Shown here: one piece after another, positions 4,617 through 53,865 of the stretch
How the letters are laid out: each line of letters starts with the position of its first letter
Numbering within the stretch: the first letter of the stretch is position 1
NCBI GenBank assembly: GCA_964612215.1
Contig: CAZTEW010000002.1
Location: forward strand, 1-63,937
Source of the DNA: an uncultured Gammaproteobacteria bacterium
Lineage (GTDB): Bacteria; Patescibacteriota; Microgenomatia; CAZTEW01
DNA: 63,937 nucleotides
Direction: 5' to 3'
Notes under the pieces: generated by a model
What the model saw: only the letters and a program-made list of their open reading frames with translations
Told to the model about the DNA's origin: nothing
Databases searched by the model: none
Made by a program: the position numbers and the translations under genes

Positions 4617-5604
4617 AGACTTTAATGGTTTCCTCGGCTGTTTTTTGCCAAGTGAATTTTTTCGCCTGATTAATGCCTTTGGCTGATAATTTTTTCCTGA
4701 GCTGGGTGTCTTTCATTAATTTCTCAATTGCTCCCGCCAGCTGGCGGGGATCAACCATCATCGCCGCCTGACCACAAATCTCTGGCAAGCTCGCTACCGC
4801 CGACGCCACCACTGGTGTACCGCAAGCCATCGCCTCTAAAACTGGCAAACCAAAGCCCTCATAAAAAGACGGCTGAACATAAATCGTTGCTAAGTTATAA
4901 ATCTCCACTAATTCTTGGCTGCTCACCCAGCCTAAGATCTTCACTTTTTCTTTTAAACCAAGCCTTTCGATTAATCGAAGAATCACCTTCGCTTCAGGTA
5001 CCTTGGTTTTTTTCAAGGCCCGGCTGACGAAAACTAAATTGGTTTTTGTTTTGGCAACCGCCCGCAACAAACCATCGACATTTTTATTCCAATTCACGTC
5101 GCCGACGTAGAGAACAAAACGCTCGGGGAGGTTATGTTTTTCTTTAATTGGTAATTTTTTGAATTCTTTTGCGGGCGCCAGATAAACAACGTGGATTTTC
5201 TTTGCCGGAACATGAAGATATGTAATAATATCTTCTTTAGAACTTTCTGAATCAGTAATAATTGCGGCGGTGTTGCGCAGAGAGAGTTCTTGAAGTTGAA
5301 GCTTTACTTCACCCTTAATCCCCCGGGGAAAATGCTGGGGAAAAACCAAAGGAATCACGTCATGAATCGTGACTACTGCCGGCTTTGGTTTTTTAAAAGG
5401 CAAAGTCGGAAAAAAAAGATCAAAATAAGGATAGTGAATCAGGTCAGCGTCAACTGGCAAAGGCCCTTGTTTAATTACCTGAAAAGAAAAGTCTTTTTTT
5501 TTGATTCGCTGCAGTCCGGCTAACAACTGCTCGACATAGACACCCATGCCCCGGCCGCTGTGGGCTGAACTGAATTTTCTCAAGTCAAAGACAACCTTCA
5601 TCAC
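4600..5604 (-). CDS. GT4-family (GT-B, group 1) glycosyltransferase
   Basis: 334 aa. Classical EGFGLPVLEAMACGTPVVAS motif. Confidence 0.85.
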   Translation of the reverse strand: MMKVVFDLRKFSSAHSGRGMGVYVEQLLAGLQRIKKKDFSFQVIKQGPLPVDADLIHYPYFDLFFPTLPFKKPKPAVVTIHDVIPLVFPQHFPRGIKGEVKLQLQELSLRNTAAIITDSESSKEDIITYLHVPAKKIHVVYLAPAKEFKKLPIKEKHNLPERFVLYVGDVNWNKNVDGLLRAVAKTKTNLVFVSRALKKTKVPEAKVILRLIERLGLKEKVKILGWVSSQELVEIYNLATIYVQPSFYEGFGLPVLEAMACGTPVVASAVASLPEICGQAAMMVDPRQLAGAIEKLMKDTQLRKKLSAKGINQAKKFTWQKTAEETIKVYEKVV

Positions 5605-7211
5605 TTGTTTTTAAATAGTAGCAGAACCAACAGCAAAAAACTAATTAATGACAGGCCGTCGCTAAATAAGCGCAGCGGCGTTTCGGTAAAGTTCACCCTG
5701 ATCTTACCTTCTCCTTGAACCGCAGCAATACTAAAAGCGCCGTCTGGTTCGATTTCAAGCAGCTGCTTCTGACCATTCCAGCCAGAGGCTGGTCCGCCTT
5801 TGGTGGAAACCAAAACTTGCCAGCCAGGATAATAATTGATATTAAACCGCAGGCGGTTATTTTCTTGAAACTCAGTTTTTGGTTCTGCTGGTTGATCATG
5901 GTTAGCCCAAATCGTCTGAAAACTGTTGCCTAAAGTCGCTGTCCCCTGAGTCCAGTCCGGATTATTTAAATAAAAACCATTATCTCGAGCCGGATAAATA
6001 ACCGGCCGGCTGTAACGCCAATTACAGAGTAAGACGGCTGCCAACAAAGCCAAGGTCAACCAACGCTTCTTCAGTTTCCCAACCAACCATCCGGCCAGAA
6101 AGCTGGTGATCAGCATCATCAGTGACAACAGCCGCCAGGGATATTGAAGATAGGCCAACCAGGGGAAAAAACGCCAGAGCGGCAAAGAAATTTCCAGCAT
6201 TAAAAAAACTAGAAAAATAAACCAAGTCAAGAAAAAGACCGGCTTACTGGAGAGAATTTTTTGCCGCCAGATGACTACCAGGCTCGTCAGCACCACCAAC
6301 CAATGAACCAAACCGACCTGAAATGACATCCCGTCCATAATGCCGCTGACGGAAAAACCATTCCCCCAGGAAGGAAAGACCAGTTGGAAAAAGGCCGGAA
6401 AGTGGTCGCTATAGTTAATCAGCTCTAGCCCGCGGACGAATCTTTTTTCGACCAAGGCCGGCAGCCAAAAATAGGCGCTTAACCCCAAACCAAGAATTAA
6501 AGACACTCCGGACAGCCACTCCTCGGACGGTGGCAGGCTGAATCCGCCAGCTGGCGGAGAAAGCCATGACTCCTCCGAGGTGGGGCGGCAAAAAACTAAA
6601 TAGCTCACTAAAAATACACTGAAAATCATAGCGAGAATATTGTGAGAAAGAATGAGTAAAGCAAAAAATAAGCCCGCTAGTGCTAACCGGCGCTTCTCCC
6701 AAGCCCAAAGAATCGCTGCTAACCAAACCAAAGCCCAGGCTTCGCCGACCGAACCACGAATGTAAGCATCAACAAAATGATAGGGCGCGTAAAGATAGAA
6801 AACAGCGCCAACTAAGGCTGGCCAGGAACCGAAAAGTTCTTTTAACCAAAGATAAAAAAACAGGGTTGACAAAATTAAGGTTAAAGCCAGGCTGAACTTG
6901 AAAGAATCGGCCAGACTGGCACCCAAAAGCAGAAAAATTTCCGCTCCGTAGTTCGGCAACGGATAGAAAAAATTAAAAAGCGGCGCGCCAAAACCATGAT
7001 CTAAATCCGGCGCCCAGCGGGAAAAGGGTCGGCCGCTGCGAAAATTCTTGTCAAACTGCCAAAAACGGATTAGGTGATACTCGCCATCGTGAGTCGGTAT
7101 AAAACCGGCCCGCCATAAGGGCCAGCTCGCCAGAACCACCAATAGCCCCAGAATTAACCATGGCCAGTATTTTTTCATTGTAAAGCAATAATGCCTAAAT
7201 AATGAATCCAA
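5601..7211 (-). CDS. Family A polytopic membrane protein, putative GT-C glycosyltransferase (PTPS-related/COG5617-like by recollection)
   Basis: 536 aa. THDGEYHLIRF, YFWLPAL and YYPGWQVLV motifs, plus a C-terminal TM anchor. The likely true start is ATG at 7178, which forms an ATGA overlap with the upstream stop. Confidence 0.7.
   Translation of the reverse strand: MDSLFRHYCFTMKKYWPWLILGLLVVLASWPLWRAGFIPTHDGEYHLIRFWQFDKNFRSGRPFSRWAPDLDHGFGAPLFNFFYPLPNYGAEIFLLLGASLADSFKFSLALTLILSTLFFYLWLKELFGSWPALVGAVFYLYAPYHFVDAYIRGSVGEAWALVWLAAILWAWEKRRLALAGLFFALLILSHNILAMIFSVFLVSYLVFCRPTSEESWLSPPAGGFSLPPSEEWLSGVSLILGLGLSAYFWLPALVEKRFVRGLELINYSDHFPAFFQLVFPSWGNGFSVSGIMDGMSFQVGLVHWLVVLTSLVVIWRQKILSSKPVFFLTWFIFLVFLMLEISLPLWRFFPWLAYLQYPWRLLSLMMLITSFLAGWLVGKLKKRWLTLALLAAVLLCNWRYSRPVIYPARDNGFYLNNPDWTQGTATLGNSFQTIWANHDQPAEPKTEFQENNRLRFNINYYPGWQVLVSTKGGPASGWNGQKQLLEIEPDGAFSIAAVQGEGKIRVNFTETPLRLFSDGLSLISFLLLVLLLFKNK
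5782..5806. repeat. Type-3 palindromic micro-insertion (KGGPASGW cassette)
   Basis: CCAGAGGCTGGTCCGCCTTTGGTGG. Encodes STKGGPASGW directly after the YYPGWQVLV motif. Confidence 0.8.
6519..6583. repeat. Type-1 palindromic element (65-nt variant) in frame
   Basis: CTCCTCGGAcGGTGG (6519-6533) ... TCCGCCAGCTGGCGGA (6543-6558) ... CTCCTCCGAGGTGG (6570-6583). Translated as PTSEESWLSPPAGGFSLPPSEEW. Confidence 0.75.
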
Positions 7212-8365
7212 ATGGCAAAAACCGTTCCTAAAAAGAAAAGAAGATTGATCCTGCCTTTAACGCCGAAAATCGAAAGCAGCAACAGCGGCACCATAAAGTC
7301 CAAACTATAGCGATAACCAAATTGCAGCCAGCCGCTACTGTAAATCAGAAGAATCGGGCAAACCACTGCCAGCAAGGACAACCAAAGTGAGCGACGGTAA
7401 ATGTCCCGAGGCGCGGCTAAGAAAATCGCTAAAAGCGGTGGCGTCAAAAAGAAAATCGAGCTGCCGTCTAGGTTGAAGCTCAGCTTCACGCCGTCCTGCC
7501 AGCTTAAAGCCGGTATCTCCAAAAGCATAATCCAGAGATTTTTCAACAGATAGGCCAGAGAATAAATGCCGTGTTGATCAATCCAGGACTGAAAATGAGG
7601 ATGATAAATCACGTGGCGATAGCCGTTTTCCAGCGGATTATCAAATCGCAGCCAATTATAAAGAAACATCAGCGAGGCGAAAAACAAGACCGGCCAAACC
7701 ATGAGGCCTAAACAGCGTTTTCTTTTCTCAGCAGATTCAGTTAAAACCAAAGAAAATGTAATTAACAGCAGAAAAATCATTGGTCCTCGACCCAGAAAAG
7801 CTAGACTAATTAATAATGAAGAAAAGAAATAATCGCGAAGCGAGCGCTTTTTTTTGAAGATTAAATAAATACCCAGAGCCGTTGGGAAAAAAGAGACTAC
7901 CTGAGCCGTGTGCCAAACGCCGGCATTGGTCGCCAGGTAAAAATGAGTCGTCCCAAAAGCAAAAAGCGCTGTGGTCAATAAAATGCCCCATTCGGTAAGC
8001 TGAGACAGGAAGTCTTGCTGGAGCCGTTTTAAAAGCAGATAAATAATCACCACATTCAGGCTGCCAAAAAAAACATTAAGATATAAAAGGGGCAGGTAGC
8101 GATGCATTAATACCTGATAAGGCATTAAAATCAGAGCCGACAAGACACCCCAATAAGGATACCAGCGGCCTTGATAAAAAGCGAGGTCATAATTGGTTGC
8201 TGGCTCGGGAATATCCAACCTGCCTTGAAGCAGGGATTGGGCTAAGGGGTTGAAGTGATCTAAGTCCAGGGGAACAATAAAGCTGCCTCTCGTGCCAACG
8301 TAAAAATAAATCAGAGAAACCACTAAAAAGATAAGCAATTTTTTCATAGCCGGAAAACTAACCAA
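7175..8365 (-). CDS. Polytopic membrane protein, putative GT-C glycosyltransferase
   Basis: 396 aa with about 10 hydrophobic segments. Loop motif YDLAFYQGRWYPYWGVL. An alternative ATG at 8347 gives an ATGA overlap with the upstream stop. Confidence 0.55.
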   Translation of the reverse strand: MVSFPAMKKLLIFLVVSLIYFYVGTRGSFIVPLDLDHFNPLAQSLLQGRLDIPEPATNYDLAFYQGRWYPYWGVLSALILMPYQVLMHRYLPLLYLNVFFGSLNVVIIYLLLKRLQQDFLSQLTEWGILLTTALFAFGTTHFYLATNAGVWHTAQVVSFFPTALGIYLIFKKKRSLRDYFFSSLLISLAFLGRGPMIFLLLITFSLVLTESAEKRKRCLGLMVWPVLFFASLMFLYNWLRFDNPLENGYRHVIYHPHFQSWIDQHGIYSLAYLLKNLWIMLLEIPALSWQDGVKLSFNLDGSSIFFLTPPLLAIFLAAPRDIYRRSLWLSLLAVVCPILLIYSSGWLQFGYRYSLDFMVPLLLLSIFGVKGRINLLFFLGTVFAIWIHYLGIIALQ

Positions 8366-9894
8366 TCAGCGTTCTGATAAGCCAATTCTAAATTTTCCTG
8401 AAAAAAGTCAGTTTTCAGTCTTAAGGGCAACAGCAAGTAATCAATCTCTTGGCTTTTCATCAGCGCCAGCGTCTCTTGATCACCAGCGCTAAAAAAACGT
8501 TTGGCCAGATTTTTTCTATCAGTAAAATTATAGCCCATCACCTCAAGATAATAATTAGCGCCGCAATAATTAAAGCGGCCAGCCAGGGTCACTGGATCTA
8601 AAATCTCGGCCGGCGCCAGAAAAACAGACTGACGGTCTGTTTCTATTTTAATCCAAGCCATCAACTCCCTAGTTGACGCTTCCGGAAAAGAGAGCTGAAA
8701 ATCATTCTTGACGGCCAGGAAATTCAAGCCGCCGGAAAAAGTCAATAGAAAAAAGGTGGTAAAAAATAAAATTTTTCCCACGTTTTCTTGTTTGATTAAC
8801 CAAACAAGAAAAAAGGCAGTATAAAAATTCGCCCCAAGAAAAAATAAATTAAACAACGAGTGATTATGGTCAATCCGAAAACCTAATTGAAACAAATTGC
8901 CAATGATAAACAACGGTAAAAAGCTAAAAAAAATCTGCCGTTGTTTTTTGCCGGCCAGAATCACGCCGGCCGGAATGGTGAAAAGAGCCGCGCCGAAATT
9001 CAGCCACCAGAATTTAAACCACTCCCCTAGTCCATCTACTAAAAAGCCCGGCCGCCAAAAAGGATGAGTTAGGTTCTGGTTTAAAATCTGAAGGCCGTGA
9101 GGTAAAAAAATCAAGCCAGCTGGCAGAAAAACTAGCCAAATTTGCCGCCAACGCCGGAAAAAGATAAAAAGAAAAAACAGGGTTAGGCTACTACTGAAAA
9201 AAATTAAAGTATGGATTCGCGAAGAAAGCCCTAAAATTAAACCCAGACCAACCAACAGCCGCGACGCCAGCGGCTGATCATTAAACAATCGCTTAATAAT
9301 GAAATTAAGAATCGCCAGACTGATGGCCAGGCCGGCAAGCAAATGCCGCTGGTTCAACCAAACATTAGGGGTGAAAAAAATCGAAATCAACGACCCGTCA
9401 AAGGGTCCTTTGTGGAGATAATCTGGCAAAAACCAGAAGTCCCGCCAAGTCGGCCCTTGTTGGAAAAAATCAACAAAACTTAAACTGCTCGAAAAAAGAA
9501 AAAAAGCCACTGATAATATCCCCAACCAAGGATTAAGGCCGAAAATAGTCTGGGAAAGTTTATAAATCAAAAATAAAATCGCGGTGAAAGCGATAACGCT
9601 TAAACCATTAAAAGCATAGTCCAACCGCCAGCCTAATCTCTCTAAGCCGCCGACCACCAGATCAAAATAATAATGATAAGGCAGGGGTTTGCCCGGAAAA
9701 AACGGCGACTCGACTGGAAAATTGTTGCCCCAAGAAAAAGAACGGATTAAAGACAGGTGTAGGCCAAAATCGCCTACCTGATGCCGGGCGATCCGGAACT
9801 GGCCGATCTCCGGCAAATAGCCAAACGACTTATTCATCAGCCAGCAGGAAAAAAGAAAGAAGAAAACCAGCAGCAGAATTTCAAACTTTTTCAC
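8344..9894 (-). CDS. Polytopic membrane protein, family unassigned (possible GT-C)
   Basis: 516 aa, multi-TM, with a soluble C-terminal domain. GTG start. Family not recognised by eye. Confidence 0.5.
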   Translation of the reverse strand: MKKFEILLLVFFFLFSCWLMNKSFGYLPEIGQFRIARHQVGDFGLHLSLIRSFSWGNNFPVESPFFPGKPLPYHYYFDLVVGGLERLGWRLDYAFNGLSVIAFTAILFLIYKLSQTIFGLNPWLGILSVAFFLFSSSLSFVDFFQQGPTWRDFWFLPDYLHKGPFDGSLISIFFTPNVWLNQRHLLAGLAISLAILNFIIKRLFNDQPLASRLLVGLGLILGLSSRIHTLIFFSSSLTLFFLFIFFRRWRQIWLVFLPAGLIFLPHGLQILNQNLTHPFWRPGFLVDGLGEWFKFWWLNFGAALFTIPAGVILAGKKQRQIFFSFLPLFIIGNLFQLGFRIDHNHSLFNLFFLGANFYTAFFLVWLIKQENVGKILFFTTFFLLTFSGGLNFLAVKNDFQLSFPEASTRELMAWIKIETDRQSVFLAPAEILDPVTLAGRFNYCGANYYLEVMGYNFTDRKNLAKRFFSAGDQETLALMKSQEIDYLLLPLRLKTDFFQENLELAYQNADWLVFRL

Positions 9895-10996: not shown

Positions 10997-12138
10997 CTTT
11001 TTAATTGCCAGTAAGCTAGTGCCAACAACGGCGGCAGAAAGCTGACTATTTTTTTAATTAACGGTGTTGTCCCTGCCCAGCTGGCAGTATAAAGAAAAGG
11101 AGTTAAGCGGAACATCAAGCCAAACGAAAAAGCAAGAATAATCGCCACCAATAACTCGCTGGCTGGCAATAAAGCCGCAAAAGTCAGCGGCCAAATCAAG
11201 TACCAAGCGTAAATTTCTTCGCGCAAAGGCGACAGGAGGAAAACCAGCATCATACTTAAGGCTGACCAGCGCCAAACCACCGGCCAGTTAATTTTTCGGC
11301 GCTGACACTCCTGCCTGCCGGCAGGCAGGGTCTGCCAGGCCGTCCAGATAAACATCGGCAACAAAAATAAAGTGGCAAACTTAATCAAAATCGAAGAGAA
11401 CAAGCTGGCCACAGCTAAACAGAAACGCCTTTTTTTCAAAAGATAAAAAGCTGCCAAGGCCAAAGCCATCATCACGACATCATTATGACCGTCAACCAGA
11501 GTTTGCACCGTTACCAAAGGATTAAGACCAAAAAAAGCCAGCGTCCACAGCCGGTGACCGCTTAGTTGCCAAATCAGCCAACAAAGAAGAAAATAAAAAA
11601 CGATTACTAAAAGCTTAAAGGTGAAAATCGTTAAAAATAAATGGCCGGCGCCGAGAAAATGAGGCAAAGCCGTCAATAAAATCCAAAATGGCCCATAAAG
11701 AGCGGTTTTATTAGCGGCGTGCATAAATTTCAACATTGGTTCGTTGGAAATTTCGATGGGCATAATCAAATAAGGATTTTCGCGGTAAAGAAAACCCACC
11801 CGGGCGGTGGCCATATAATTGAAAATATCATAAGAAAAAGCCGGGTAGCTGAAAAAAAGAATGATTGTCGTTAGGAAAATCAGACGCCAGACCGCCTGAC
11901 TGGTCAGTTTTTTTTGCTTAACCAGCCGGAGAATCTGCCAATAAAGCAGGAAAGCAAAAACAATCAAAAAGCTGTAAATCGCGGTCATCAGCAACCGGCG
12001 AGAAAAAAGAAACGCCTCCAGAGCCGGCCAGTGTGGAAAAGGCGAACTGGAATTAACAAAGCCATATGAATAAACGACAAATGACAAATGACAAATGACA
12101 AATAAAAGATAAAAAATCTGTTTTCTAAATTTTCTCAC
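10975..12138 (-). CDS. GT87/DUF2029-like membrane glycosyltransferase (paralogue of 48037-49194)
   Basis: 387 aa. ALYGPFWILL and GHNDVVMMALALAAFYLLKK motifs are shared with the 48037 ORF. GTG start. Confidence 0.6.
   Translation of the reverse strand: MRKFRKQIFYLLFVICHLSFVVYSYGFVNSSSPFPHWPALEAFLFSRRLLMTAIYSFLIVFAFLLYWQILRLVKQKKLTSQAVWRLIFLTTIILFFSYPAFSYDIFNYMATARVGFLYRENPYLIMPIEISNEPMLKFMHAANKTALYGPFWILLTALPHFLGAGHLFLTIFTFKLLVIVFYFLLCWLIWQLSGHRLWTLAFFGLNPLVTVQTLVDGHNDVVMMALALAAFYLLKKRRFCLAVASLFSSILIKFATLFLLPMFIWTAWQTLPAGRQECQRRKINWPVVWRWSALSMMLVFLLSPLREEIYAWYLIWPLTFAALLPASELLVAIILAFSFGLMFRLTPFLYTASWAGTTPLIKKIVSFLPPLLALAYWQLKRCLKRIG
11310..11329. repeat. Perfect 20-nt GC-rich palindrome inside a CDS
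   Basis: CCTGCCTGCCGGCAGGCAGG. Encodes LPAGRQ in a loop. Confidence 0.85.
12076..12103. repeat. Perfect heptanucleotide tandem repeat (GACAAAT) x4 inside a CDS
   Basis: Four exact units. Encodes FVICHLSFV in the first TM helix of the GT87-like protein. Confidence 0.9.
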
Positions 12139-12652
12139 GAATGTTTTTAGCTTGGTCTAATAATTGATGAATTTTTAATTCCTCAGCGGCTTGCTTTTCC
12201 GGCTGCCAGAGAATTTCTTCAGGCAGTTCTTGGCGCAATTTATTCAACACCGCTTGATGCTTGCTAGCGGCAGCCTGAAAAATCTCTTTTTTCTGGCTGG
12301 CATCTATTTGCTGCCAATGAAAATTGGATTTTTCCAGGGCCCGCTCGGCCAGGAGATATTGCTCGTACTCAAAAAGAGTTTTTGCTTCCACTAAATATTT
12401 ATTTGCCATTTTCAGGTGATATTTAAACTGAGCCAGGTTGCCAAAAGACCAGTATTCCTGAAATTTTTCCCAAACCTGCCGGAGCCGATAAAGCTTATGT
12501 CCGGGCATGTAAGAAGGGTAAGGCAAAACATCGCCTGAAGCATTCGCTTCAGGAATGATCAATAACCAATAACCAATAACCAATAATAAAGACAAAAAAA
12601 TAATTTTAAATTTAAAATTATTCATTGCTTTCGGGCAACAACGCCAATGCAC
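12125..12652 (-). CDS. Secreted or anchored helical protein, DUF5667-like
   Basis: N-terminal hydrophobic helix followed by YMPGHKLYRLRQVWEKFQEYW...YLVEAKTLFE. The likely start is ATG at 12625, which forms an ATGA overlap with the methyltransferase stop. Confidence 0.55.
   Translation of the reverse strand: MHWRCCPKAMNNFKFKIIFLSLLLVIGYWLLIIPEANASGDVLPYPSYMPGHKLYRLRQVWEKFQEYWSFGNLAQFKYHLKMANKYLVEAKTLFEYEQYLLAERALEKSNFHWQQIDASQKKEIFQAAASKHQAVLNKLRQELPEEILWQPEKQAAEELKIHQLLDQAKNIREKI
12554..12588. repeat. Period-7 tandem repeat (AATAACC) x3 plus 2 imperfect units inside a CDS
   Basis: aatgatc aataacc aataacc aataacc aataata. Encodes the signal/TM segment LLVIGYWLLII. Confidence 0.85.
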
Positions 12653-13332
12653 CAGTTAAGATATAGTTTCAGACGGGTTTTTTCTATTTTTTGCCAAAAT
12701 TTTTCATACCAAGAACCCATCCGCAAATAACGGAGTTGGTGAAGCTTGCCATAATAGCCCCAACCGTAACTTTTTAAAATTTTAAAGCCAGCGCCTCTGA
12801 TTAAATTTTCCAACTCTGAAATCGAATATTCCCTTTCCCAACCGGCGAACCATTTTTTTCTTAAAATTAACCAATGCTTTTTAAGAGTATAAGTGGTAAA
12901 GCGCTGGGGCACATCGACCACTAAAATAGCTTCCTTTTTTAAAACCCGTCTTTGTTCCTTTAAAAAAGTCATCGGATCATGAAAATGTTCTAAAAAGCCC
13001 TGATGAAAAACAATATCAAAAGTTTCACTCTTAAAAGGAATTTGTTTAGCATCAGCTAAAATCGTTTCCAGCCTGATTTTTTCTTTTTGAGCATTCCCCC
13101 GTATTGCTTCCAGGGCCTTGGGACTATTATCTAAAACTGTCACCCTGGCTTCTTTTTTAGCCAGATAAAAGCTGTCGCCGCCCATGCCGGCGCCAATCTC
13201 TAAAATCTTTTTGTTTTTTATTGCAATAACGGCCATTAAATTTTTCAATAATTCTCTATGAATGACTCGGGGTTGGTGATTTTCAGAAGCCCAGTATTTT
13301 TCCCAAACCTGGCGATCATTTTTTCTTGGCAT
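12622..13332 (-). CDS. Class I SAM-dependent methyltransferase
   Basis: 236 aa. Motif I ILEIGAGMGGDSFYLAKK, then VTVLDNS and DIVFHQGFLEH. Confidence 0.8.
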   Translation of the reverse strand: MPRKNDRQVWEKYWASENHQPRVIHRELLKNLMAVIAIKNKKILEIGAGMGGDSFYLAKKEARVTVLDNSPKALEAIRGNAQKEKIRLETILADAKQIPFKSETFDIVFHQGFLEHFHDPMTFLKEQRRVLKKEAILVVDVPQRFTTYTLKKHWLILRKKWFAGWEREYSISELENLIRGAGFKILKSYGWGYYGKLHQLRYLRMGSWYEKFWQKIEKTRLKLYLNWCIGVVARKQ

Positions 13333-14164
13333 TTTTCAATTCCCAGAATTTAAGATAAGCACTCGCCTCAAGCAAGCCGGAAAACAAAGCAAAAATAAAG
13401 CCTAAAAAGCCGTCTAAAAATCCTTTATTGACAAAATAAACCTTGAGAAAGGTCTGCATCGGGACGATCAGTAAATAGCGAAAGCTGTTAAAAAAATTCG
13501 GAGTCAGAGAAGAACGCCAGTGCTCTTGGGCGCGGAGCGAAGAATAAGTATTAAACTTTTTAAGATATTCAGAAAAAGTCGGAAAAGGATAATGGAGTAA
13601 ATGACCCTTTAAATAACCGGTTTTGCCTTTTCCGCCAGAGGCGGATCCGCCTTTGGCGGAGACGACCATCTGTTCATGAACTGATTTGCAGGGCAAATAT
13701 GCTTGGCCGCGTTTTAAGAGGCGGATAACCGCATCCGGATACTGGCCGCCTTTTTTCAACCACCGGCCCAGAAAAAAATTCTTTCGGGGCAGATAATAGG
13801 CCGCTGGCGCGTCCTTTTGCCATGTCCGGCCGGCAATTTCCCTAATTTCTTGAGCCAGTTGCTGATCAACCACTTCATCCGCATCCAACTGGAGAATCCA
13901 ATCGCCTTTGGCCTGATCAATCGCTATTTGTTTATTGATGTGAAAAATGGGTTTATTGGTCGTCACGATAACCTTGGCGCCGTATTTTTTAGCCACTTTG
14001 ACGGTCTGGTCAATTGATTGGCCATCAACCACAATAATCTCATCCGCCAGCTGGCGGACCGCCTCCAAACACGCACCGAGGTTTTTTTCCTCATTAAAGG
14101 TTGCGAGAACAACGCTAATTTTAGATTTCATTTCTTTTGGCGCTTCACGAAAACTTCTTTGCAA
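13316..14164 (-). CDS. GT2-family glycosyltransferase (paralogue of 38591 and 40903)
   Basis: ISVVLATFNEEKNL, IIVVDGQSIDQT and LDADE motifs. The likely start is ATG at 14131, which forms an ATGA overlap with the small upstream ORF. Confidence 0.8.
   Translation of the reverse strand: MQRSFREAPKEMKSKISVVLATFNEEKNLGACLEAVRQLADEIIVVDGQSIDQTVKVAKKYGAKVIVTTNKPIFHINKQIAIDQAKGDWILQLDADEVVDQQLAQEIREIAGRTWQKDAPAAYYLPRKNFFLGRWLKKGGQYPDAVIRLLKRGQAYLPCKSVHEQMVVSAKGGSASGGKGKTGYLKGHLLHYPFPTFSEYLKKFNTYSSLRAQEHWRSSLTPNFFNSFRYLLIVPMQTFLKVYFVNKGFLDGFLGFIFALFSGLLEASAYLKFWELKNAKKK
13632..13660. repeat. Type-3 palindromic micro-insertion in a GT2 gene
   Basis: CCGCCAGAGGCGGATCCGCCTTTGGCGGA. Encodes SAKGGSASGG, which is absent from the two GT2 paralogues at the same position. 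Confidence 0.8.
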
Positions 14165-30592: not shown

Positions 30593-32257
30593 CTATTTTA
30601 ACATGAAAGACTTCAGGCCGCGGCCAACAAGGAATAATAAAGAGAGACAGCTGATGGCTTCGCCTAAGATTCTATCCCAAGTTCTGGTAAATTTAATCAT
30701 CACCTCATGTTCGCCCTCTTCCAATGGGAATTGAATCAGCCCTGATATTAAAGTAATATCAAATTTTCTTTTTTGACCATTCCAGCCAGAGGCTGGTCCG
30801 CCTTTGGTGGAGACCCAGAGCCGCCAACCAGGATAATAAACCGTATTCAGTCGCACCTGACTATCCTCGACTGCTTTGACGCGATATTTTTGCCAATGAG
30901 AATGAACTTCTTCGCTTAAAACCTCAACTTCACCAGCCATGGCTTCTAAAACTGCCTGTCTCGGACCTTCATGTTTACCGCTAACCGACCAGCGAGGCCG
31001 GTATTCATTATAAGAATTGCTGGTTGCTGGTTTATTTAAAAAGTAGTCGTCAGTCAGATCTTGATAAAGATTGACGCGCAGATGGTTGCGGTTGCCATAA
31101 AAAGTTAAAGCCAATAAAAAAATGGTCAGCGGCAAGAAAAGAGTCTTTTTTTTGAGAGCTGTTAAAACCCCGCCGGTGATTAAAGAACTAAAAAGAGTGG
31201 TCAAGGCCAAGTAGCGAAAAGGAAAGTCAATCTTTAGAAAAAAGCTGATCGCTTGCCAATAAGGATTGGCAACAGGCAGCATCAAAAAAACTGCGCTGAA
31301 GAAAAAAACTATCAATAAGCCGAGCAACCGCTGGCGTTGTCGCCACCAAACCAAAACTGCTAAAGCTACCGCCAACCACTGAGCAATGCCAACCTGAAAA
31401 GACATGGCATCGAGTTCGGTCCCGGGATGGGATAAACCATAGCCCCAAGATGAATAGATTAATTGTTTTAGGCTAGGAAAGTGATCGCGATAAAAAACCA
31501 TCATTTCTTGGGAAAACATGGTCTCTTTTTTTTCTACTAGGGCTGGCAGCCAGTAAAAGGCGCTGAGGGCTAGCGCCAGAATTATGAATTTAGAATTATG
31601 AATTATGAATGCTTTTTTATCTTTCCTCTGGTAAAGAAAAAAGATAATCAAAACCAGTAAAAAAGGCAAAAATAAAAAGGCCAGCATCATGTGAGAAAGA
31701 AAAAGACAGGCTAAAAAGATGCCGCCGAAAATAGGCTTTTTTGCCAACACCGCCCAAATCAAAAGCGGCAAGAAGAGAAAACAAACCGCCTCGCCTAAGC
31801 TGGCTCTGACCAAAATGGTGGAAAAGCGCCACGGCGTCCAAAGATAAAAAACAGCGCCGGTAAAAGCTGCCAATCGGTTTGACCAAAGTTTTTTTTGCGT
31901 CAAATACATCGCCAGGCCGGACAAAACATAAGTCAGAATAAAAACCGCCTTAATTGAATCAATAAACGAAAGTCCTATTAAATGAAAAAAAGTGCCTAAA
32001 TAAAAAGGGAAGCGGTAGATGAAAATAAAAAGAGGGTAACCATAGCCATCAAAAGCCGGTGGGCCGGCCCAGCGCACCGGCAGCTGACCATCCTTTAATC
32101 CTTTGACAAAATGAATTAGTCTGATAACTTGATGTTCGCCGTCGTGGCTGGTATAAAAGCCCGGCTGAAAAAGGGCTTTCACACCAAAAACACCAATGAG
32201 AAGCAATAAAATTAAAGCCAGCCAATCAATCTTTTTCATGAAAAAACCAATGTTCAA
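30593..32257 (-). CDS. Family A polytopic membrane protein, putative GT-C glycosyltransferase
   Basis: 554 aa. SHDGEHQVIRL, AFYWLPAL and VYYPGWRLWV motifs. Alternative ATG at 32239. Confidence 0.7.
   Translation of the reverse strand: MNIGFFMKKIDWLALILLLLIGVFGVKALFQPGFYTSHDGEHQVIRLIHFVKGLKDGQLPVRWAGPPAFDGYGYPLFIFIYRFPFYLGTFFHLIGLSFIDSIKAVFILTYVLSGLAMYLTQKKLWSNRLAAFTGAVFYLWTPWRFSTILVRASLGEAVCFLFLPLLIWAVLAKKPIFGGIFLACLFLSHMMLAFLFLPFLLVLIIFFLYQRKDKKAFIIHNSKFIILALALSAFYWLPALVEKKETMFSQEMMVFYRDHFPSLKQLIYSSWGYGLSHPGTELDAMSFQVGIAQWLAVALAVLVWWRQRQRLLGLLIVFFFSAVFLMLPVANPYWQAISFFLKIDFPFRYLALTTLFSSLITGGVLTALKKKTLFLPLTIFLLALTFYGNRNHLRVNLYQDLTDDYFLNKPATSNSYNEYRPRWSVSGKHEGPRQAVLEAMAGEVEVLSEEVHSHWQKYRVKAVEDSQVRLNTVYYPGWRLWVSTKGGPASGWNGQKRKFDITLISGLIQFPLEEGEHEVMIKFTRTWDRILGEAISCLSLLFLVGRGLKSFMLK
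30786..30810. repeat. Type-3 palindromic micro-insertion (KGGPASGW cassette)
   Basis: CCAGAGGCTGGTCCGCCTTTGGTGG, identical to 5782-5806. Encodes STKGGPASGW. Confidence 0.8.
31577..31610. repeat. Period-7 repeat block containing the 28-nt string CAGAATTATGAATTTAGAATTATGAATT
   Basis: aattatg aatttag aattatg aattatg. Encodes FIIHNSKFIIL before the YWLPAL motif. Confidence 0.85.
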
Positions 32258-43286: not shown

Positions 43287-44904
43287 AAGAATATCTTAGC
43301 ATAAAAAAAGCCAAGCCTAGCCAGGTTATTAGGCTAATCAGATTGGCCAGAGTTCTGATGGGCGTATTGGTAAAGCGCAGGTTCACTTGGTGCCGGCCAG
43401 CGGGCAGAGAAAGTTTGATTTTGCCGGCTTGGATTTGCGGCTCTTGTTCCTGGCCATCCATCCAGAGCCGCCAGCCGGGAAAATAGGCGGTGTTAATTAA
43501 AATTTCTCCGCCGGTTGGCGGATTGGCAGTAACCTCGAAGTTCAGTCGATGTGATTTAGAAATCAAATCGCTAATCGCCACTTCACCTGCCAAGACTACC
43601 ACCTTTTTCCAAGCCGCCTCATCCCGGTTGGTTGACACGGGAAAATCACGCGGCAGATATTCGTCAGAAATTCTCGAGGTCGTCCATTTAATATTTTCTT
43701 CATTGACATATTCGGCAACGCCAAAAGACAACATCCTTTCTGGCTGAAAAAATTTGGCGTTCAAAGTCAAAAGAATCAAAATCACCAAACCAACGCCCAG
43801 TTTTCCTCGCCAGCCTTGCTGGTTTAACCACCAAGCGGCGCTGCCGGCTAAAAACGAGCTGGCGGCCGTCGCCAAAACCAAAAACCGCCAAGGATATTGA
43901 ATAAAAGACATCAGCGGCGCTAATTGCCAGATAAAAGCGGAAAAGCGGCTCATTAGGAAAACAGCGAAAATTAATATTCCTAGGGTGACACCGATCGCCC
44001 GCTGCTGAAATTTAGTCTTAAGACAAATCAACGCTGCCACCCCAGCCATAATTAAGTGAAGTTTGCCAATCATCAAGCTCATCCCATCCCAGGGTCCGGG
44101 GGCGGAACCAGCAAAACCCCAAGGGCTATCCCAAAGCTGGCGTAGATAAACAAAATGCTCTCGCCAATCTGCGCCGGCGCCAATCTGGCTAAAAACCTGA
44201 GTCAATTTCATTTCTGTTAAGGCTGGCAACCAGTAAAAGGCGCTGGTTCCCAGCGCCAGAATTATGAATTTAGAATTATGAATTATGAATTGTCTTTTTT
44301 CTTGACTAAAGTAATAAAATATTAAAATAATAATGAATAAAAATATCGTCAGCATTAAAGCCGTTAAATTGTGAGAAAGAATCACGGCCGCATAAGCCAG
44401 GCCGCTGATGATCCACGAACGCCGCTTGAGACCGTAAAAAACCAAAGGCAGCCAGGCCATCGCCCAAAACTCACCGACGGCGCCCCGGACATAAATGTCC
44501 ACCGCATGATAAGGCGCGTACAGATAGAAAAGAGCGGCCACTATTCCACCGATTACTCCCCAGAATTCGCGAGCCAGTAAGAACATGGTTATCCCAGCCA
44601 GCAAGACACCGACCAGCATCATCATCTTTGTCGCTAATAAGGCGTTAAAGCCCAGAAGACATAGTCCGCCGCCAAAATAATAAGCCAGAGGCGCGTAGAA
44701 ATTAAAAATCGAATAGCCGTAACCATAACCCAAATCCGCCAGCTGGCGGACCGGAAACTGGCCGTCGCGCAGCGCCTCTCCCATTTGCTGAACCCGAACC
44801 ACTTGAGTATCGTCGTGAATCGGAAAAAAGCCATTAACCAGCAGCGGCCTGACTGCCCCAAGAGAAAGAATTAAAACAACTAATAACGGCCAAATTTTTT
44901 TCAT
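43279..44904 (-). CDS. Family A polytopic membrane protein, putative GT-C glycosyltransferase
   Basis: 541 aa. IHDDTQVVRV, AFYWLPAL and AYFPGWRLWM motifs, plus a C-terminal TM anchor. Confidence 0.7.
   Translation of the reverse strand: MKKIWPLLVVLILSLGAVRPLLVNGFFPIHDDTQVVRVQQMGEALRDGQFPVRQLADLGYGYGYSIFNFYAPLAYYFGGGLCLLGFNALLATKMMMLVGVLLAGITMFLLAREFWGVIGGIVAALFYLYAPYHAVDIYVRGAVGEFWAMAWLPLVFYGLKRRSWIISGLAYAAVILSHNLTALMLTIFLFIIILIFYYFSQEKRQFIIHNSKFIILALGTSAFYWLPALTEMKLTQVFSQIGAGADWREHFVYLRQLWDSPWGFAGSAPGPWDGMSLMIGKLHLIMAGVAALICLKTKFQQRAIGVTLGILIFAVFLMSRFSAFIWQLAPLMSFIQYPWRFLVLATAASSFLAGSAAWWLNQQGWRGKLGVGLVILILLTLNAKFFQPERMLSFGVAEYVNEENIKWTTSRISDEYLPRDFPVSTNRDEAAWKKVVVLAGEVAISDLISKSHRLNFEVTANPPTGGEILINTAYFPGWRLWMDGQEQEPQIQAGKIKLSLPAGRHQVNLRFTNTPIRTLANLISLITWLGLAFFMLRYSYG
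44257..44290. repeat. Period-7 repeat block containing the 28-nt string CAGAATTATGAATTTAGAATTATGAATT
   Basis: Identical block to 31577-31610. Encodes FIIHNSKFIIL. Confidence 0.85.
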
Positions 44905-46514
44905 TTTTTCAAAAGAAAGAGAACCACTAAAACGCTGATTAAGGAAACTAGGTCGGCCAAAAGACGCAATGGCGTTTCCTTAAAGACAGCCATCACTGAA
45001 TATTGACCGCCGGGCAGAGAAAAATCAATTAAGCCGGCTTGCTCATAATCAATCGGCTGGCGTTGACCGTCCCAGCCAGAGGCTGGTCCGCCTTTGGCGG
45101 AAATCACTAACTTCCAACCGGGAAAATAATGAGTGTTGAGGCGTAATCGGCTCGGCGCTGATAAGTCGGCCCGGAAAGCAACCCGGCGCGAATTAATGTC
45201 CAAGTCACTGATTTCACCGCTACCAGCAATAATTTCTACTTTTTGTTTAGCCCGCTTGTCCGGCATTTCTTTTACCCAAATGGGCGTGTATTCGGCGCCG
45301 ACGGTAGTCGTGTCTTCATTGGTCGTATAAAACCCAAGAGGTTGATTACTAAAATAAGCCGGTCGAGCGTATTGCCAGCCTTGCCAAACTAAAACTAGCG
45401 CCAAAATAATTACCAGGCCTTTTTGCCAGCGCCGGCTTGCTTGAGAAACTAAAAAACCGCCTAAGACTGAAGCAATAAAAGTGGTGAGCGCCAATAACCG
45501 CCAAGGGAACTGGATAAGATTGTAAACTGGAAAAAGCCGCCAAAGCCACCAAGACGGCGCTAACATCAGAAAAAAAGCCAGCCAAAAAGCAGAAACCCAG
45601 AATTTTAATTTTCGCCACCAAAATAAGCTGAGAGCGGCTACGGCTAAACTTAAAAGGCCGACTTGAAAAGAAATCCCATCTTCAAGAGAAAGGGGCAGAG
45701 ACGGACCATAGCCCCAAGAAGGTAATAATAATTGCTTTAAGCTCGGAAAGTGAAGAAAAAAATTACTGATCCTGGTCTGGCGGAAAAAAGTAAATTGCTG
45801 ATCCCAAAGAGCCGGCAACCAGAAAAAGCAACTCAAACCCAAACCCAATAAGATAGCGGCAGTCACTCTCTTGGCGGTAGGACTCCTCCGAGGTGGCCCG
45901 CCGACGAGGCGGGACTCCTCGGAGGTGGACGGCAAGAAAAGCCACCCCACCAGCAGGCCGCTAAAAAGCATCGCCATCGTATTATGCGACATTATTAGGC
46001 CGGCAAAAGCCAACCCAGCGACGATTTGATTTTGGCGAGATGGCTTCTCAATCTGCCAAAAGAGGAGAGGAGGGAAAACAAAAGCCAGGGCCTCGCCTAG
46101 TGAGCCGCGAACATAAACATCAACCAAGCGGTAGGGCGCGTAAACATAAAGCAAAGCGGCCATTAAACCAGCCAGTCTTCCCCACTTTTCCTTAAGCCAA
46201 AGGTACATGAAAATTCCAGACAAGAAAAAGCTAAGAATAAAAACCGCTTTTATCGCTTGGACAAAATCAAAGCCAATCAGATGAAAAAATTCCCCTAAAT
46301 AAAGCGGGAGCGGATAAAGAAAATTAAAAACCGGATAACCAAACTGGTGATTGAGACGGGCGGCCCAGCGCACCGGAATCTGGCCGGAAACAAAACTGCG
46401 GTGAAAATCAGAAAGCCTGACCACCATCCATTCGCCGTCGTGCGAAGGGAAAAAGCCGGGCGGCAGCAAAGAAAACACTAGCGGCAGCATTAAAAACAAA
46501 AGAAGCATTATCAT
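44901..46514 (-). CDS. Family A polytopic membrane protein, putative GT-C glycosyltransferase
   Basis: 537 aa. SHDGEWMVVRL, CFFWLPAL and HYFPGWKLVI motifs. Confidence 0.7.
   Translation of the reverse strand: MIMLLLFLMLPLVFSLLPPGFFPSHDGEWMVVRLSDFHRSFVSGQIPVRWAARLNHQFGYPVFNFLYPLPLYLGEFFHLIGFDFVQAIKAVFILSFFLSGIFMYLWLKEKWGRLAGLMAALLYVYAPYRLVDVYVRGSLGEALAFVFPPLLFWQIEKPSRQNQIVAGLAFAGLIMSHNTMAMLFSGLLVGWLFLPSTSEESRLVGGPPRRSPTAKRVTAAILLGLGLSCFFWLPALWDQQFTFFRQTRISNFFLHFPSLKQLLLPSWGYGPSLPLSLEDGISFQVGLLSLAVAALSLFWWRKLKFWVSAFWLAFFLMLAPSWWLWRLFPVYNLIQFPWRLLALTTFIASVLGGFLVSQASRRWQKGLVIILALVLVWQGWQYARPAYFSNQPLGFYTTNEDTTTVGAEYTPIWVKEMPDKRAKQKVEIIAGSGEISDLDINSRRVAFRADLSAPSRLRLNTHYFPGWKLVISAKGGPASGWDGQRQPIDYEQAGLIDFSLPGGQYSVMAVFKETPLRLLADLVSLISVLVVLFLLKK
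45076..45100. repeat. Type-3 palindromic micro-insertion (KGGPASGW cassette)
   Basis: CCAGAGGCTGGTCCGCCTTTGGCGG. Encodes SAKGGPASGW. Confidence 0.8.
45882..45927. repeat. Type-1 palindromic element (46-nt canonical form) in frame
   Basis: Identical to 41500-41545. Translated here as PSTSEESRLVGGPPRRS, a different frame from the GT2 copy. Confidence 0.9.
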
Positions 46515-52254: not shown

Positions 52255-53865
52255 GTGTTGAAAAAATTAATCATTGTTGGCTTTCTTTTTAGCTTATTAC
52301 TTCGTTTCTATCAATTTGGCCAAATTCCGCCGGGATTAAACCGCGACGAAGCTTCTTTAGGCTATACTGCTTATTCGCTCCTGAAGAGCGGCCGCGACGA
52401 ATATGGAATAAAGTTCCCATTAACCATCAAGTCTTTTGGCGATTGGAAACTGCCGGGCTATATTTACACCCTGATTCCTTTTATCGCTATTTTTGGTCTT
52501 CAAGGCTGGGTCATCCGCCTGCCGTCGGCTCTGGCCGGCTTAGGCACGATTATTGTCATTTATTTTTTAGGGAAAGTTATTCCGCCCCCGCAGTGGAGCC
52601 ACAAATCCACTGCGGGGGCGGTTATGGCTAGCTTTCTCCTCGCCACCAGTCCCCTGCATCTCCACCTCTCCCGAGCTGGTTATGAAGCTAGTCTGGCGCT
52701 TTTCTTTTTTAGTCTCGCTCTCCTCTTTTTTCTCCGCTCTCGGTTCATCATCTCTTTTATCCTCTTTGCTCTGACTCTTTATACTTATCATGCCTATCAT
52801 CTTCTAGCGCCTCTTTTTCTGGTCCTGCTTCTTTATCAGCGGCGTCAGTCGCTTAACCGCAAGCTGATTGCCGGTTTGGGGATTTTTTTGGTCTTGGCTG
52901 CGATTATCTTTTATCTCAATTTCAGCGCCAATCTGACCAAAGCCAGCGGCATCACCTTTATAACTGACCCTGTTTTTATTCATAATCAAATTAATGAACC
53001 CCGCTCTCAAATTGCCAATCCCCTGCTCGGCCGCCTCATTTATAACAAGCCAGTTATCTTCGGGAAAACTTTTATGCTTAACTATCTAGCCAGTTTCTTG
53101 CCGCGATTTCTGGTCTTTCAAGGCGGCCGCCATCCAGTTCACAATGTTCCTGGTGTTGGCCCGGTTCTGCTTGTTGTTTATCTTTTGTTTTTTGTCGGCC
53201 TCTATCAGCTAATTAAAAAACCAAATAACCGCCTCCTTCTTGGCTGGCTCTTATTAACGCCCCTAGCTTCAAGCATTACTATTGATGCTCCTAGTACCGT
53301 TCGTTTAACACCAATGATTGTTCCTTTCTGTTTGATTAGCTCTTTGGGTTGGGAAAAATACAAACGCTTCACTTCAATTATTATCCTGATTATTTTTGTT
53401 AATCTGGCGCTTTTCGGCCGCCAGTATTTTCAAATCCTGCCTCGAGAACGAGCCCAAAATTGGGGGGCTGGTTATCAAGAATTAGCCAGCTATCTTAATC
53501 TGCCGGAAAGCGTCGCCCGCCCGGTCATCATGTCCCGACCAAATTATTCACCTTATATCTACTTTCTTTTTTACCAAAATTACCCACCGGCCCGGTATCA
53601 ACGAGAAGCGGTTCGCTACCCAGCGACCACTGACGGCTTCTTTCATGTTAAAAGCTTTAGCCGTTATCAGTTTGGAGATTTTGATCCCTTAGAAGCTGTC
53701 AATCAGGGTAAGGCTGTTGTTCTCTGGGCTGATGAAGAAATTGAGACGCTGATCGCTCCTTTTCTCCAAAAAACTATCTCTTATCGAGAAAAGCCGGTAT
53801 TTTATCTCTTTGCCAAAAAACAAGACCTAGCAAAACCAGCGCTCCCAGAGAAATCATTTCGCTGA
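52255..53865 (+). CDS. Family C PMT/ArnT-like membrane glycosyltransferase
   Basis: 536 aa. LRFYQFGQIPPGLNRDEASLGYTAYSLLKSGRDEYG and ATSPLH motifs. The 3' end overlaps the convergent gene by 92 nt. Confidence 0.8.
   Translation: MLKKLIIVGFLFSLLLRFYQFGQIPPGLNRDEASLGYTAYSLLKSGRDEYGIKFPLTIKSFGDWKLPGYIYTLIPFIAIFGLQGWVIRLPSALAGLGTIIVIYFLGKVIPPPQWSHKSTAGAVMASFLLATSPLHLHLSRAGYEASLALFFFSLALLFFLRSRFIISFILFALTLYTYHAYHLLAPLFLVLLLYQRRQSLNRKLIAGLGIFLVLAAIIFYLNFSANLTKASGITFITDPVFIHNQINEPRSQIANPLLGRLIYNKPVIFGKTFMLNYLASFLPRFLVFQGGRHPVHNVPGVGPVLLVVYLLFFVGLYQLIKKPNNRLLLGWLLLTPLASSITIDAPSTVRLTPMIVPFCLISSLGWEKYKRFTSIIILIIFVNLALFGRQYFQILPRERAQNWGAGYQELASYLNLPESVARPVIMSRPNYSPYIYFLFYQNYPPARYQREAVRYPATTDGFFHVKSFSRYQFGDFDPLEAVNQGKAVVLWADEEIETLIAPFLQKTISYREKPVFYLFAKKQDLAKPALPEKSFR
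52582..52621. repeat. Type-2 hairpin element (16-bp perfect stem, 8-nt loop) in frame
   Basis: CCGCCCCCGCAGTGGA-gccacaaa-TCCACTGCGGGGGCGG. Translated as PPPQWSHKSTAGAV. Confidence 0.9.

Follow-up and report, generated by a model that had tools for sequence, protein, structure and literature searches.

A dispersed 30-nt double-hairpin repeat in Patescibacteria and other bacteria, and its association with small GIY-YIG nuclease genes and tRNA loops

Why should four paralogous membrane proteins, and a glycosyltransferase unrelated to them, carry almost the same ten residues, encoded each time by almost the same palindrome? The question is raised by contig CAZTEW010000002.1 of an uncultured bacterium, of which we analysed one stretch of 63,937 nt (positions 1-63937, hereafter the window). 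A sequence-only reading of the window had described a palindromic cassette at five sites and regarded it as a nucleotide element rather than a protein motif. All five sites were recovered: the 22-mer CCAGAGGCTGGTCCGCCTTTGG matches the + strand with at most three mismatches at 5782, 13635, 30786, 45076 and 53991, and has no match in 100 dinucleotide-preserving shuffles of the window. The cassette is probably a copy of a selfish repeat of 30 nt, the double-hairpin element (DHE), which acts at the level of nucleotides and which we also found in many other genomes.

Anatomy and exact insertion of the element

In gene sense the unit reads TCCGCC-AAA-GGCGGA|TCCGCC-TCT-GGCGGA, i.e. two abutting 15-nt hairpins, each with a 6-bp stem and a 3-nt loop. 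The cassette had been given a length of 25-30 nt, of which the upper value holds: the real unit has 30 nt, at 5778-5807 and at the four other sites. When the window was scanned for two consecutive hairpins of this kind (6-bp stem and 3-nt loop), only the five copies were found, against 0.05 per shuffle. On either strand the purine-rich loop comes before the pyrimidine-rich one, and this order also holds in 14 copies on which the search placed no constraint. The two halves are near reverse complements. Terminal inverted repeats are thus present only in a trivial sense, the whole element being the repeat.

The pairing of the stems is conserved. A scan of metagenomes left the variable stem positions free, and in the 121 copies that it provided these positions are Watson-Crick paired in 96-98% of cases, with at most four pair types per position, while the two hairpins vary independently of one another. 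A formal covariation test was made on 36 distinct 30-mers with 500 shuffles. Under the two-hairpin model 97.7% of the cells are paired, against 87.0 ± 1.0% after shuffling (0/500 shuffles as high), and the covariation score is 0.282 against 0.087 (0/500). The sequence-only reading had drawn a single long hairpin from the outer arms of the palindrome. These arms do pair, yet the long hairpin has 83.3% of its cells paired against 83.6% in shuffles (335/500) and shows no covariation. Evolution conserves two adjacent small hairpins, not the long stem. As for predicted folding energies, the symmetric consensus favours the long hairpin and the asymmetric variants favour the two small ones. Among the double changes, C-G to A-T and C-G to G-C are the most frequent, and G-T intermediates are no commoner than other mismatches. 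From the dominance of double changes and the lack of enrichment in G-T intermediates we infer that pairing matters in DNA, or that one arm is copied from the other, rather than that a slowly evolving RNA helix is maintained. Solo 15-nt halves are rare (13 within 1.66 Mb) and mostly degenerate doublets; a footprint or solo-end model, which expects halves separated by a gene, was rejected on this ground. A separate observation concerns locus L125, where three solo hairpins of 15-16 nt (CCCGCCAAAGGCGGG, TCCGCCTAAAGGCGGA and CCCGCCATAGGCGGG) lie at 5640-5860 among tRNA genes, downstream of a GIY-YIG open reading frame (ORF); single hairpins may also be deposited or left behind.

Is the cassette an insertion? 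Among the best 120 homologues of the protein encoded at 5601-7211, the segment is present only in the identical protein and in one orthologue of 81% identity; an 80% orthologue and all the other homologues listed lack it. A relative with 86.8% nt identity (L121) has the empty site CAA GTT TTG GTC|AAT GGT CAG where the window has GTT TTG GTT[30 nt]AAT GGT CAG. None of 119 homologues of the glycosyltransferase has its insert, and two relatives (L244 and L245, 77-79% nt identity) have GTC|AAA GGC in place of the window's GTC[30 nt]AAA GGC. In both comparisons the filled site is longer by exactly 30 nt and TC|AA is already there in the empty site; a target-site duplication was sought at both, and no duplicated bases were found. 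The closest orthologue of the gene with the third copy (65%, P0122) lacks the insert as well. In total, about 360 homologues were compared, and the segment occurs only in the window's own proteins and in the one 81% orthologue. The comparison of orthologues, to which the sequence-only reading had looked for a decision, thus gives clean empty sites at 77-87% nt identity and speaks for its interpretation as a nucleotide element. It shows that the DHE inserts itself between TY and RA as exactly 30 nt, without target duplication.

The logo of 123 copies reads TY|TCCGCC...GGCGGA|RA. T at -2 is found in 63-82% of copies and A at +2 in 78-88%, alike in intergenic copies, in copies read in frame 0 and in copies read in other frames, so that the target is TY|RA and not a codon effect. 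The two bases occur jointly in 57% of copies, which is the expectation under independence; the two sides do not covary as a stem. We also considered hairpin loops as the general target and rejected this, since copies outside ORFs show only a weak excess (12% vs 4.6%, p=0.046) and copies in ORFs none.

The presence of the element varies between close relatives. Relative L122 (80.5% nt identity) keeps the insert of the first copy, with differences at 4/30 positions that make up two compensatory pairs: the stem pairs CCAGCC/GGCTGG and TCGGCC/GGCCGA stand against each other, the peptide changes from PASGW to SASGR, and the hairpin is kept. The same relative holds at 2708-2737 a diverged DHE, TCGTCCAGAGGACGATCGGCCCCTGGCCGA, with both stems compensated, in the orthologue of the window gene 8344-9894, which is without it. 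L121 is nearer to the window and lacks the first copy, L122 is farther and has it, which implies either two hits at this site or a precise loss of the element. We thus showed presence/absence turnover between close relatives. Among the loci fetched from databases, all selected for carrying the element, no empty sites were found, as was to be expected.

Reading of the copies in genes and the shared site

All five copies of the window lie in minus-strand ORFs, four of which encode membrane proteins of 536-565 aa of the GT-C type (with matches to YfhO, PTPS_related or PMT_2, all weak) and one a family 2 glycosyltransferase (GT2). Copy 1 (5778-5807, minus strand like the others) is found in the YfhO/PTPS-related gene 5601-7211, between the flanks GTT|AAT; in gene sense it reads TCCACCAAAGGCGGACCAGCCTCTGGCTGG, which gives STKGGPASGW. 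Copy 2 (13631-13660) belongs to the GT2 gene 13316-14164, has the consensus sequence TCCGCCAAAGGCGGATCCGCCTCTGGCGGA, giving SAKGGSASGG, and is flanked by GTC|AAA. The remaining hosts are again YfhO/PTPS-related genes, 30593-32257 for copy 3 (30782-30811), 44901-46514 for copy 4 (45072-45101; TCCGCCAAAGGCGGACCAGCCTCTGGCTGG, SAKGGPASGW) and 53774-55471 for copy 5 (53987-54016; TCCGCCAAAGGCGGATCGGCCTTTGGCCGA, SAKGGSAFGR), whose second hairpin has a compensated stem, TCGGCC/GGCCGA. Copies 1 and 3 had been described as identical, and they are so at 30/30 positions; CCAGCC/GGCTGG is common to three copies. Each copy adds 10 aa relative to paralogues. An alignment of six paralogues of the membrane proteins (family A) agrees with the description of inserts at one site in four of them and of a further insert in the unrelated GT2: in four paralogues the gap-free ten-residue insert S(T/A)KGG(P/S)A(S/F)G(W/R) stands right behind (Y/F)(Y/F)PGWxxx(V/I), the two shorter ones are without it, and in the GT2 the insert sits behind VHEQMVV, where two GT2 paralogues have no residues at all.

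Since the five copies share one reading frame and four of them one structural position, KGG(P/S)A(S/F)G might be a functional protein motif, e.g. a sorting or glycosylation signal, with the palindrome as an incidental feature. We give this explanation almost no credence. It is at odds with the homologues that do without the segment, and with the only insert-keeping orthologue, which changed the peptide and kept the hairpin. A genome-wide search for the pattern, also proposed by the sequence-only reading, found hundreds of unrelated genes with the 30-mer, in every frame and in both orientations, and further copies in non-coding DNA. Half of the copies (120/244) lie in ORFs of at least 200 aa, and about 30% in no ORF of at least 100 aa. 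Within the former, 84 are read in frame 0 (SAKGGSA[SF]GG), 23 in frame 2 (PPKADxPLA) and 13 in frame 1 (RQRRIRLWR). The host proteins are diverse, 97 of them matching 203 Pfam families, and include class I and II aminoacyl-tRNA synthetases, UvrC, UvrD, GyrB and DnaJ. Neither do the structure models point to a conserved motif. The AlphaFold2 model of the protein encoded at 5601 has a mean pLDDT (predicted local distance difference test score) of 92.2 and only two low-confidence blocks: residues 461-470, which are the DHE insert and form a loop between strands 453-459 and 470-471, and residues 201-220, which correspond to another palindromic insert, a composite of 63 nt. In the model of the GT2 (mean pLDDT 93.1) the sole low internal block, residues 161-170, is again a loop between strands. 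The structure check proposed by the sequence-only reading thus predicts both modelled inserts to be surface loops between strands. The target xTY|RAx helps to account for this location: in frame 0 it specifies F/L/I/V and then N/K/D/E, as is typical of a strand-to-turn boundary.

The DHE amounts to ten codons, and its common variants are free of stops in every frame. This is no special adaptation: 30% of shuffled sequences are equally free of stops, and the TCAGCC/GGCTGA variant does have one, a TGA in frame 0. Half of the copies of this variant lie outside ORFs and only 2/20 of its ORF copies are in frame 0, against 82/100 for the stop-free variants. The avoidance of frame 0 by the stop-bearing variant implies that the element is translated and filtered by selection. 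Judging from the sequences, the DHE is read through as a peptide, in frame 0 the presumably flexible SAKGGSASGG, and predicted junction peptides of read-through copies include VLVSTKGGPASGWNGQK and MVVSAKGGSASGGK. Inside ORFs 82 copies are in sense and 15 in antisense orientation. The predicted mRNA fold is weaker in the sense orientation (-21.6 vs -25.4 kcal/mol), and the bias could come from the quality of the peptide or from this weaker fold. Frame and orientation counts show purifying selection. Outside ORFs the copies are unbiased in orientation, whether judged by GC skew or by the neighbouring genes; a replication-strand bias as in IS200/IS605 was also considered, and none exists among intergenic copies.

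How did four paralogues come to be hit at one site? The family A genes contain 28-41 TYRA sites apiece, of which 10-15 fall on codon boundaries, and four matches at the homologous site are therefore not due to chance. Usable sites may also stay empty, as in paralogue 14386 with GTT|GAT and in the GT2 paralogue 38591 with GTC|AAAGGC, so that the target motif alone is not sufficient. We favour repeated insertion from a local master copy, together with strong selection for the few tolerated sites, as the origin of the four copies; the motif xTY|RAx, i.e. a hydrophobic residue and then N/K/D/E at a strand-turn boundary, would have steered insertion to the same place. Copying of very short tracts between paralogues could have contributed.

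A single ancient insertion in the ancestor of family A, or gene conversion among the paralogues, would need no transposition and would fit the four copies at the same homologous site, found only in this lineage (the insert is missing from about 240 homologues of the family in other genomes). It would also fit the identity of copies 1 and 3, both with the rare TCCACC variant, and their common 3' flank AATGGTCA. Yet we hold this to be highly improbable. The paralogous proteins are only ~30-40% identical, yet the elements agree at 29-30/30 positions, and the similarity of the flanks ends within a few bases upstream. Orthologous copies in the window and in L122 differ at 4/30 positions with 80% gene identity, and hence an ancient copy could not have remained identical. 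The copy in the GT2 and the hundreds of copies in unrelated genes would be left unexplained. The simpler version with one ancient insertion was rejected, since the paralogues are far more diverged than the copies and there is no similarity upstream of the element.

Spread across phyla, GIY-YIG genes and tRNA loops

The repeat is not confined to the lineage of the window. We scanned one genome per species (GTDB representatives, 596 Gb) with the pattern CCAAAGGCGGANCNGCCTYTGG, for which ~2 chance matches were calculated, and found at least 120 loci. The metagenome scan gave at least 121 copies at more than 120 loci, which makes more than 240 sampled loci with near-identical copies; taken together, these abundances and the range of taxa are lower bounds. 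Taxa are given as labelled in the database records. Among the genome loci listed, about two-thirds belong to the Candidate Phyla Radiation (CPR)/Patescibacteria, in many classes. The other hosts listed include Omnitrophota (an 820-kb contig and a single-cell genome), Ignavibacteria (a 1.65-Mb contig), a KSB1 single-cell genome, Elusimicrobia, Planctomycetota, Lentisphaerae, Margulisiibacteriota, Cloacimonadota and metagenome-assembled genomes labelled Gammaproteobacteria; no cultured isolate is among the matches listed. The element has 67% GC and is near-identical throughout, in host loci that range from 25 to 66% GC. In one groundwater run sequencing depth rises ~1000-fold in a spike confined to 5776-5810, and dozens of contigs diverge on both sides of it. 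We looked for a phage or plasmid vehicle and rejected it: IMG/VR gave one partial match that is not genuine, INPHARED phages and PLSDB plasmids nothing genuine. Copies from the same genome are identical in 18/65 pairs against 8.4 expected (p ~0.017), and rare variants are genome-specific, which indicates that the DHE amplifies inside genomes as local sub-variants. The copies are single and dispersed, the closest pairs being irregularly spaced, 42-44 nt or hundreds of nt apart. We found no description of this element in the literature.

What could move such a repeat? A search for genes bracketed by two copies returned a GIY-YIG ORF of 106 aa, in locus L053, between two identical DHEs of a rare variant, both of which split the T-loop of a tRNA-Asn (GGTTC[DHE]GAATCC). 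We found homologues of this ORF at 19 places, distributed over 18 of the 240 loci. Twelve of these 19 genes lie within 200 nt of a DHE, compared with 185/2815 control small ORFs (odds ratio 24, p=3e-10), and for 12/19 there is a tRNA within 300 nt. Conversely, 28/263 DHEs are within 150 nt of a tRNA, about six times the frequency at random positions (92/5260), and 21/263 have the flanks of a T-loop (GGTTC|RAWTCC) or of a D-loop (CAGTT|GGY). We thus showed a physical coupling of DHEs to GIY-YIG genes and tRNA loops; about 5% of the copies are physically joined to such a gene. The nucleases have 81-106 aa and only the GIY-YIG catalytic domain (Pfam), their nearest solved relative being the UPF0213 protein EF2693 (PDB).

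The arrangement at these loci is regular. In 9/11 of the loci that we examined, a tRNA segment of 12-83 nt is directly repeated, and the repeat stops precisely at the edge of the DHE. One limit of the repeated segment is an end of the tRNA and the other a position in the D-, anticodon- or T-loop. An intact tRNA adjoins the nuclease gene, and the period of the repeat is 290-422 nt. Units of the type [tRNA fragment][DHE][81-106-aa GIY-YIG ORF][intact tRNA] are found at L053 4235-4771, L153 11926-12291 (with an ORF of 81 aa at 11984-12228), L015 225-720 and L103 3305-3734, and in several of them the 3' end of the nuclease ORF, with its stop codon, overlaps the 5' part of the intact tRNA. We also considered that the DHE simply interrupts tRNA genes. 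This was rejected, as its deletion restores a tRNA for only 2/268 copies; the link to tRNAs consists of partial duplications instead.

These results make it quite possible that the DHE is moved in trans by UPF0213-type GIY-YIG nucleases, consisting of the catalytic domain only, which would recognise the hairpin or cruciform. In the simplest reading, a mobile unit made of the DHE, the GIY-YIG gene and a part of a tRNA, 290-422 nt long, would enter a tRNA gene at a loop and regenerate the tRNA. The DHE would be one terminus of this unit and the 30-nt copies in ORFs its non-autonomous form. A nuclease without a DNA-binding domain plausibly reads hairpin or cruciform structure and not sequence, which would explain why the pairing of the stems is conserved more than their sequence. 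More tentatively, the nuclease (~80-100 aa) and the 30-nt DHE might together form an unrecognised, minimal class of structure-guided mobile element, with an autonomous tRNA-loop unit of ~300-400 nt and a 30-nt form scattered over TY|RA sites without duplication, essential protein genes included, where it would be translated as a ten-residue loop; the pair would have passed between CPR bacteria and several other phyla. Several points weigh against these proposals. A GIY-YIG gene was sought in the 64-kb window and none is there. No intermediate of excision or insertion was seen among assembled contigs, and a target of 4 nt alone fails to explain four copies at one homologous site. GIY-YIG genes could home into or beside DHEs, or both could prefer tRNA loops. 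Homing endonucleases of the classical GIY-YIG kind make cuts with 2-nt overhangs and depend on homology-directed repair for their spread, which by itself gives no account of a duplication-free 30-nt insertion at non-homologous sites. We found no account in the literature of UPF0213-type nucleases as mobile genes. Independently, a groundwater study inferred that genes for GIY-YIG catalytic domains were transferred from Patescibacteria to other bacteria (PMC12455944), and such transfers would fit the spread of the DHE across phyla.

The main alternative to a GIY-YIG nuclease as the mover is a single-strand, hairpin-specific HUH/Y1 transposase of the IS200/IS605 type or like the transposases associated with repetitive extragenic palindromes (RAYTs). 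Such an enzyme would agree with the precise empty sites without target duplication and with the conservation of stem pairing rather than stem sequence; the two hairpins might bring the ends of the element together, much as in a nicked dumbbell, and the dominance of double transversions with rare G-T intermediates fits pairing in DNA better than in RNA. Yet the element has neither a GTAG nor a CGTC tag (as defined in PMC3733652), and its target preference is symmetric and two-sided, T and A occurring jointly no more than under independence. Further, no Y1 transposase was seen beside the copies, in loci that were not exhaustively scanned, whereas GIY-YIG genes are seen there. We regard this alternative as unlikely. 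It is very unlikely that the DHE is instead a signal useful to the host and kept by selection, such as a protein-binding site, a pause or terminator hairpin, an RNA-stability element or a DNA-uptake signal. The extreme conservation of sequence across phyla, the preserved pairing, the orientation bias inside genes and the T-rich or A-rich flanks of some intergenic copies would suit such a role. But presence differs among close relatives at three sites, copies lie at arbitrary positions within essential genes, and intergenic copies are unbiased with respect to neighbouring genes and GC skew. The element also arises by insertion and not, like uptake sequences, by point mutation.

Known systems compared and other palindromes of the window

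The closest parallels in architecture and behaviour seem to be the double-hairpin elements of mitochondria, a resemblance of architecture only, for which no sequence homology is expected. Those of Allomyces, like the DHE, are short, GC-rich, made of two adjacent hairpins, dispersed and variable between close relatives; elements of this type are also found in intergenic DNA, in RNA genes and in-frame in protein genes. A passage of PMC2800124, citing Paquin et al. 2000, describes them as lacking flanking duplications, and an entry in the reference list of PMC2800124 concerns GC-rich palindromes bordering tRNA genes in the mitochondria of Neurospora. Merging and nesting are known from GC clusters (PMC4478555) and are also seen in the composite inserts of the window. 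Yet the mitochondrial elements are organellar and confined to lineages, and yeast GC clusters come with AG/ACT duplications (PMC4478555), whereas the DHE is bacterial, fixed at 30 nt, near-identical across phyla, targeted to TY|RA and coupled to GIY-YIG genes.

In lifestyle the DHE resembles Rickettsia palindromic elements (RPEs), and in its genome dynamics the REP/REPIN-RAYT system, REP standing for repetitive extragenic palindrome. RPEs too are inserted in-frame in many unrelated genes, read through and compatible with folding (PMC10969869). They measure ~150 bp (~100-150 bp), are restricted to Rickettsia and have CGTC-tagged ends (PMC3733652), unlike the untagged, cross-phylum DHE of 30 nt. 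REPs and REPINs share with the DHE very short hairpins arranged as inverted doublets and the amplification of variants within genomes, and a minority of DHEs flank a putative mobilising gene, as in REPtrons. REPs are occasionally intragenic, sometimes at the same site in orthologues (PMC3733652). They are mostly extragenic, however, carry GTAG or CGTC tags (PMC3733652) and are associated with Y1 (RAYT) transposases, whereas the DHE shows neither tag in the logo of 123 copies, has more than half of its copies in ORFs and has a GIY-YIG partner.

For the nuclease the nearest comparison is SegB of phage T4, a free-standing GIY-YIG enzyme encoded in a tRNA cluster, likewise small, lodged among or within tRNA genes and inherited along with the tRNA sequence at its flanks (PMC2330249). 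Seg proteins are phage-borne, possess DNA-binding domains, rely on homology-directed repair and have no associated 30-nt hairpin repeat; the nucleases described here consist of the catalytic domain only, are chromosomal and are bordered by a DHE and a duplicated tRNA segment. The small dispersed repeats of cyanobacteria, attributed to Elhai et al. 2008, are reportedly palindromes of 20-30 nt that insert into genes and into each other. They are said to be restricted to cyanobacteria and to differ from the DHE in sequence, and we know of no nuclease partner or tRNA-loop units for them.

Standard classes of repeats fit poorly. Compared with miniature inverted-repeat transposable elements, the DHE has terminal inverted repeats only trivially and lacks a target-site duplication. 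When a parent insertion sequence was sought in 1.66 Mb, no half-elements around a DDE-type transposase were seen; one gene, the GIY-YIG gene of L053, lies between two whole copies. IS200/IS605-derived (PATE-like) elements insert without duplication 3' of a specific tetra- or pentanucleotide on one side only; the DHE causes no duplication, and its target preference is two-sided and symmetric. There are no regularly spaced arrays, as there would be for CRISPR repeats, and nowhere in the window does an Rfam family attain its gathering score.

If this reading is true, the DHE is among the smallest mobile DNAs and a bacterial counterpart of mitochondrial double-hairpin and GC-cluster elements. The means of movement of these mitochondrial elements is still unsettled in the literature cited, and a tiny GIY-YIG nuclease would be a concrete candidate here, with tRNA loops indicated as entry sites. 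The element would explain a recurrent ten-residue insert rich in Gly, Ser and Ala in CPR proteins that might otherwise be read as a lineage-specific motif, and such inserts degrade alignments, domain calls and structure predictions. It would also mark recent exchange of DNA between CPR bacteria and other groundwater phyla. Finally, it illustrates how new surface loops of essential enzymes, among them aminoacyl-tRNA synthetases, GyrB and UvrC, can originate from selfish DNA.

A glycosylation island on the minus strand spans nearly the whole window. Over 20 membrane proteins of the GT-C type (YfhO, PTPS_related, PMT_2) are encoded there together with GT2 genes, many with 4-bp overlaps, and the GC skew of the + strand is negative throughout. 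Other palindromes are scattered in it. A perfect palindrome of 16 nt, (T/C)CCGCCAGCTGGCGG(A/G), encodes PPAGG and is found at 4733, 6543, 14043, 15646 and 44735, with a variant at 18490; at 15646 the length equals that of paralogues, and a few copies also occur in other fetched loci. The form TCCGCCAGCTGGCGGA of this palindrome has the same 6-bp stem as the DHE hairpins, with a 4-nt loop. The cassette had been presented as a second, independent family of ORF-invading micro-palindromes. It does invade ORFs, but in view of this stem its independence from the other palindrome families of the window is uncertain. The composite insert of 63 nt in gene 5601-7211 (~6512-6585) is a palindrome nested within a palindrome, CCACCTCGGAGGAGTC...[TCCGCCAGCTGGCGGA]...CCGTCCGAGGAGTGG, with the peptide TSEESWLSPPAGGFSLPPSEEW; it is present in L122 and not in L121, the closest orthologue. 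An identical hairpin of 40 nt with a 16-bp stem, CCGCCCCCGCAGTGGAGCCACAAATCCACTGCGGGGGCGG, occurs at 52582-52621 and 54338-54377, in different genes and on opposite strands; its translation is PPPQWSHKSTAGA in one gene and RPRSGFVAPLRGR in the second. A hairpin of 17 nt, CCCGCCG(A/G)(T/C)GAGGCGGG, has five intragenic copies (14492, 27514, 33116, 41514 and 45897), two of them nested within PPRR/SEER type 1 composites. Finally, a palindrome of 20 nt, CCTGCCTGCCGGCAGGCAGG, lies at 11310-11329, and related CCTGCC...GGCAGG hairpins recur in other fetched loci, which suggests a further dispersed family.

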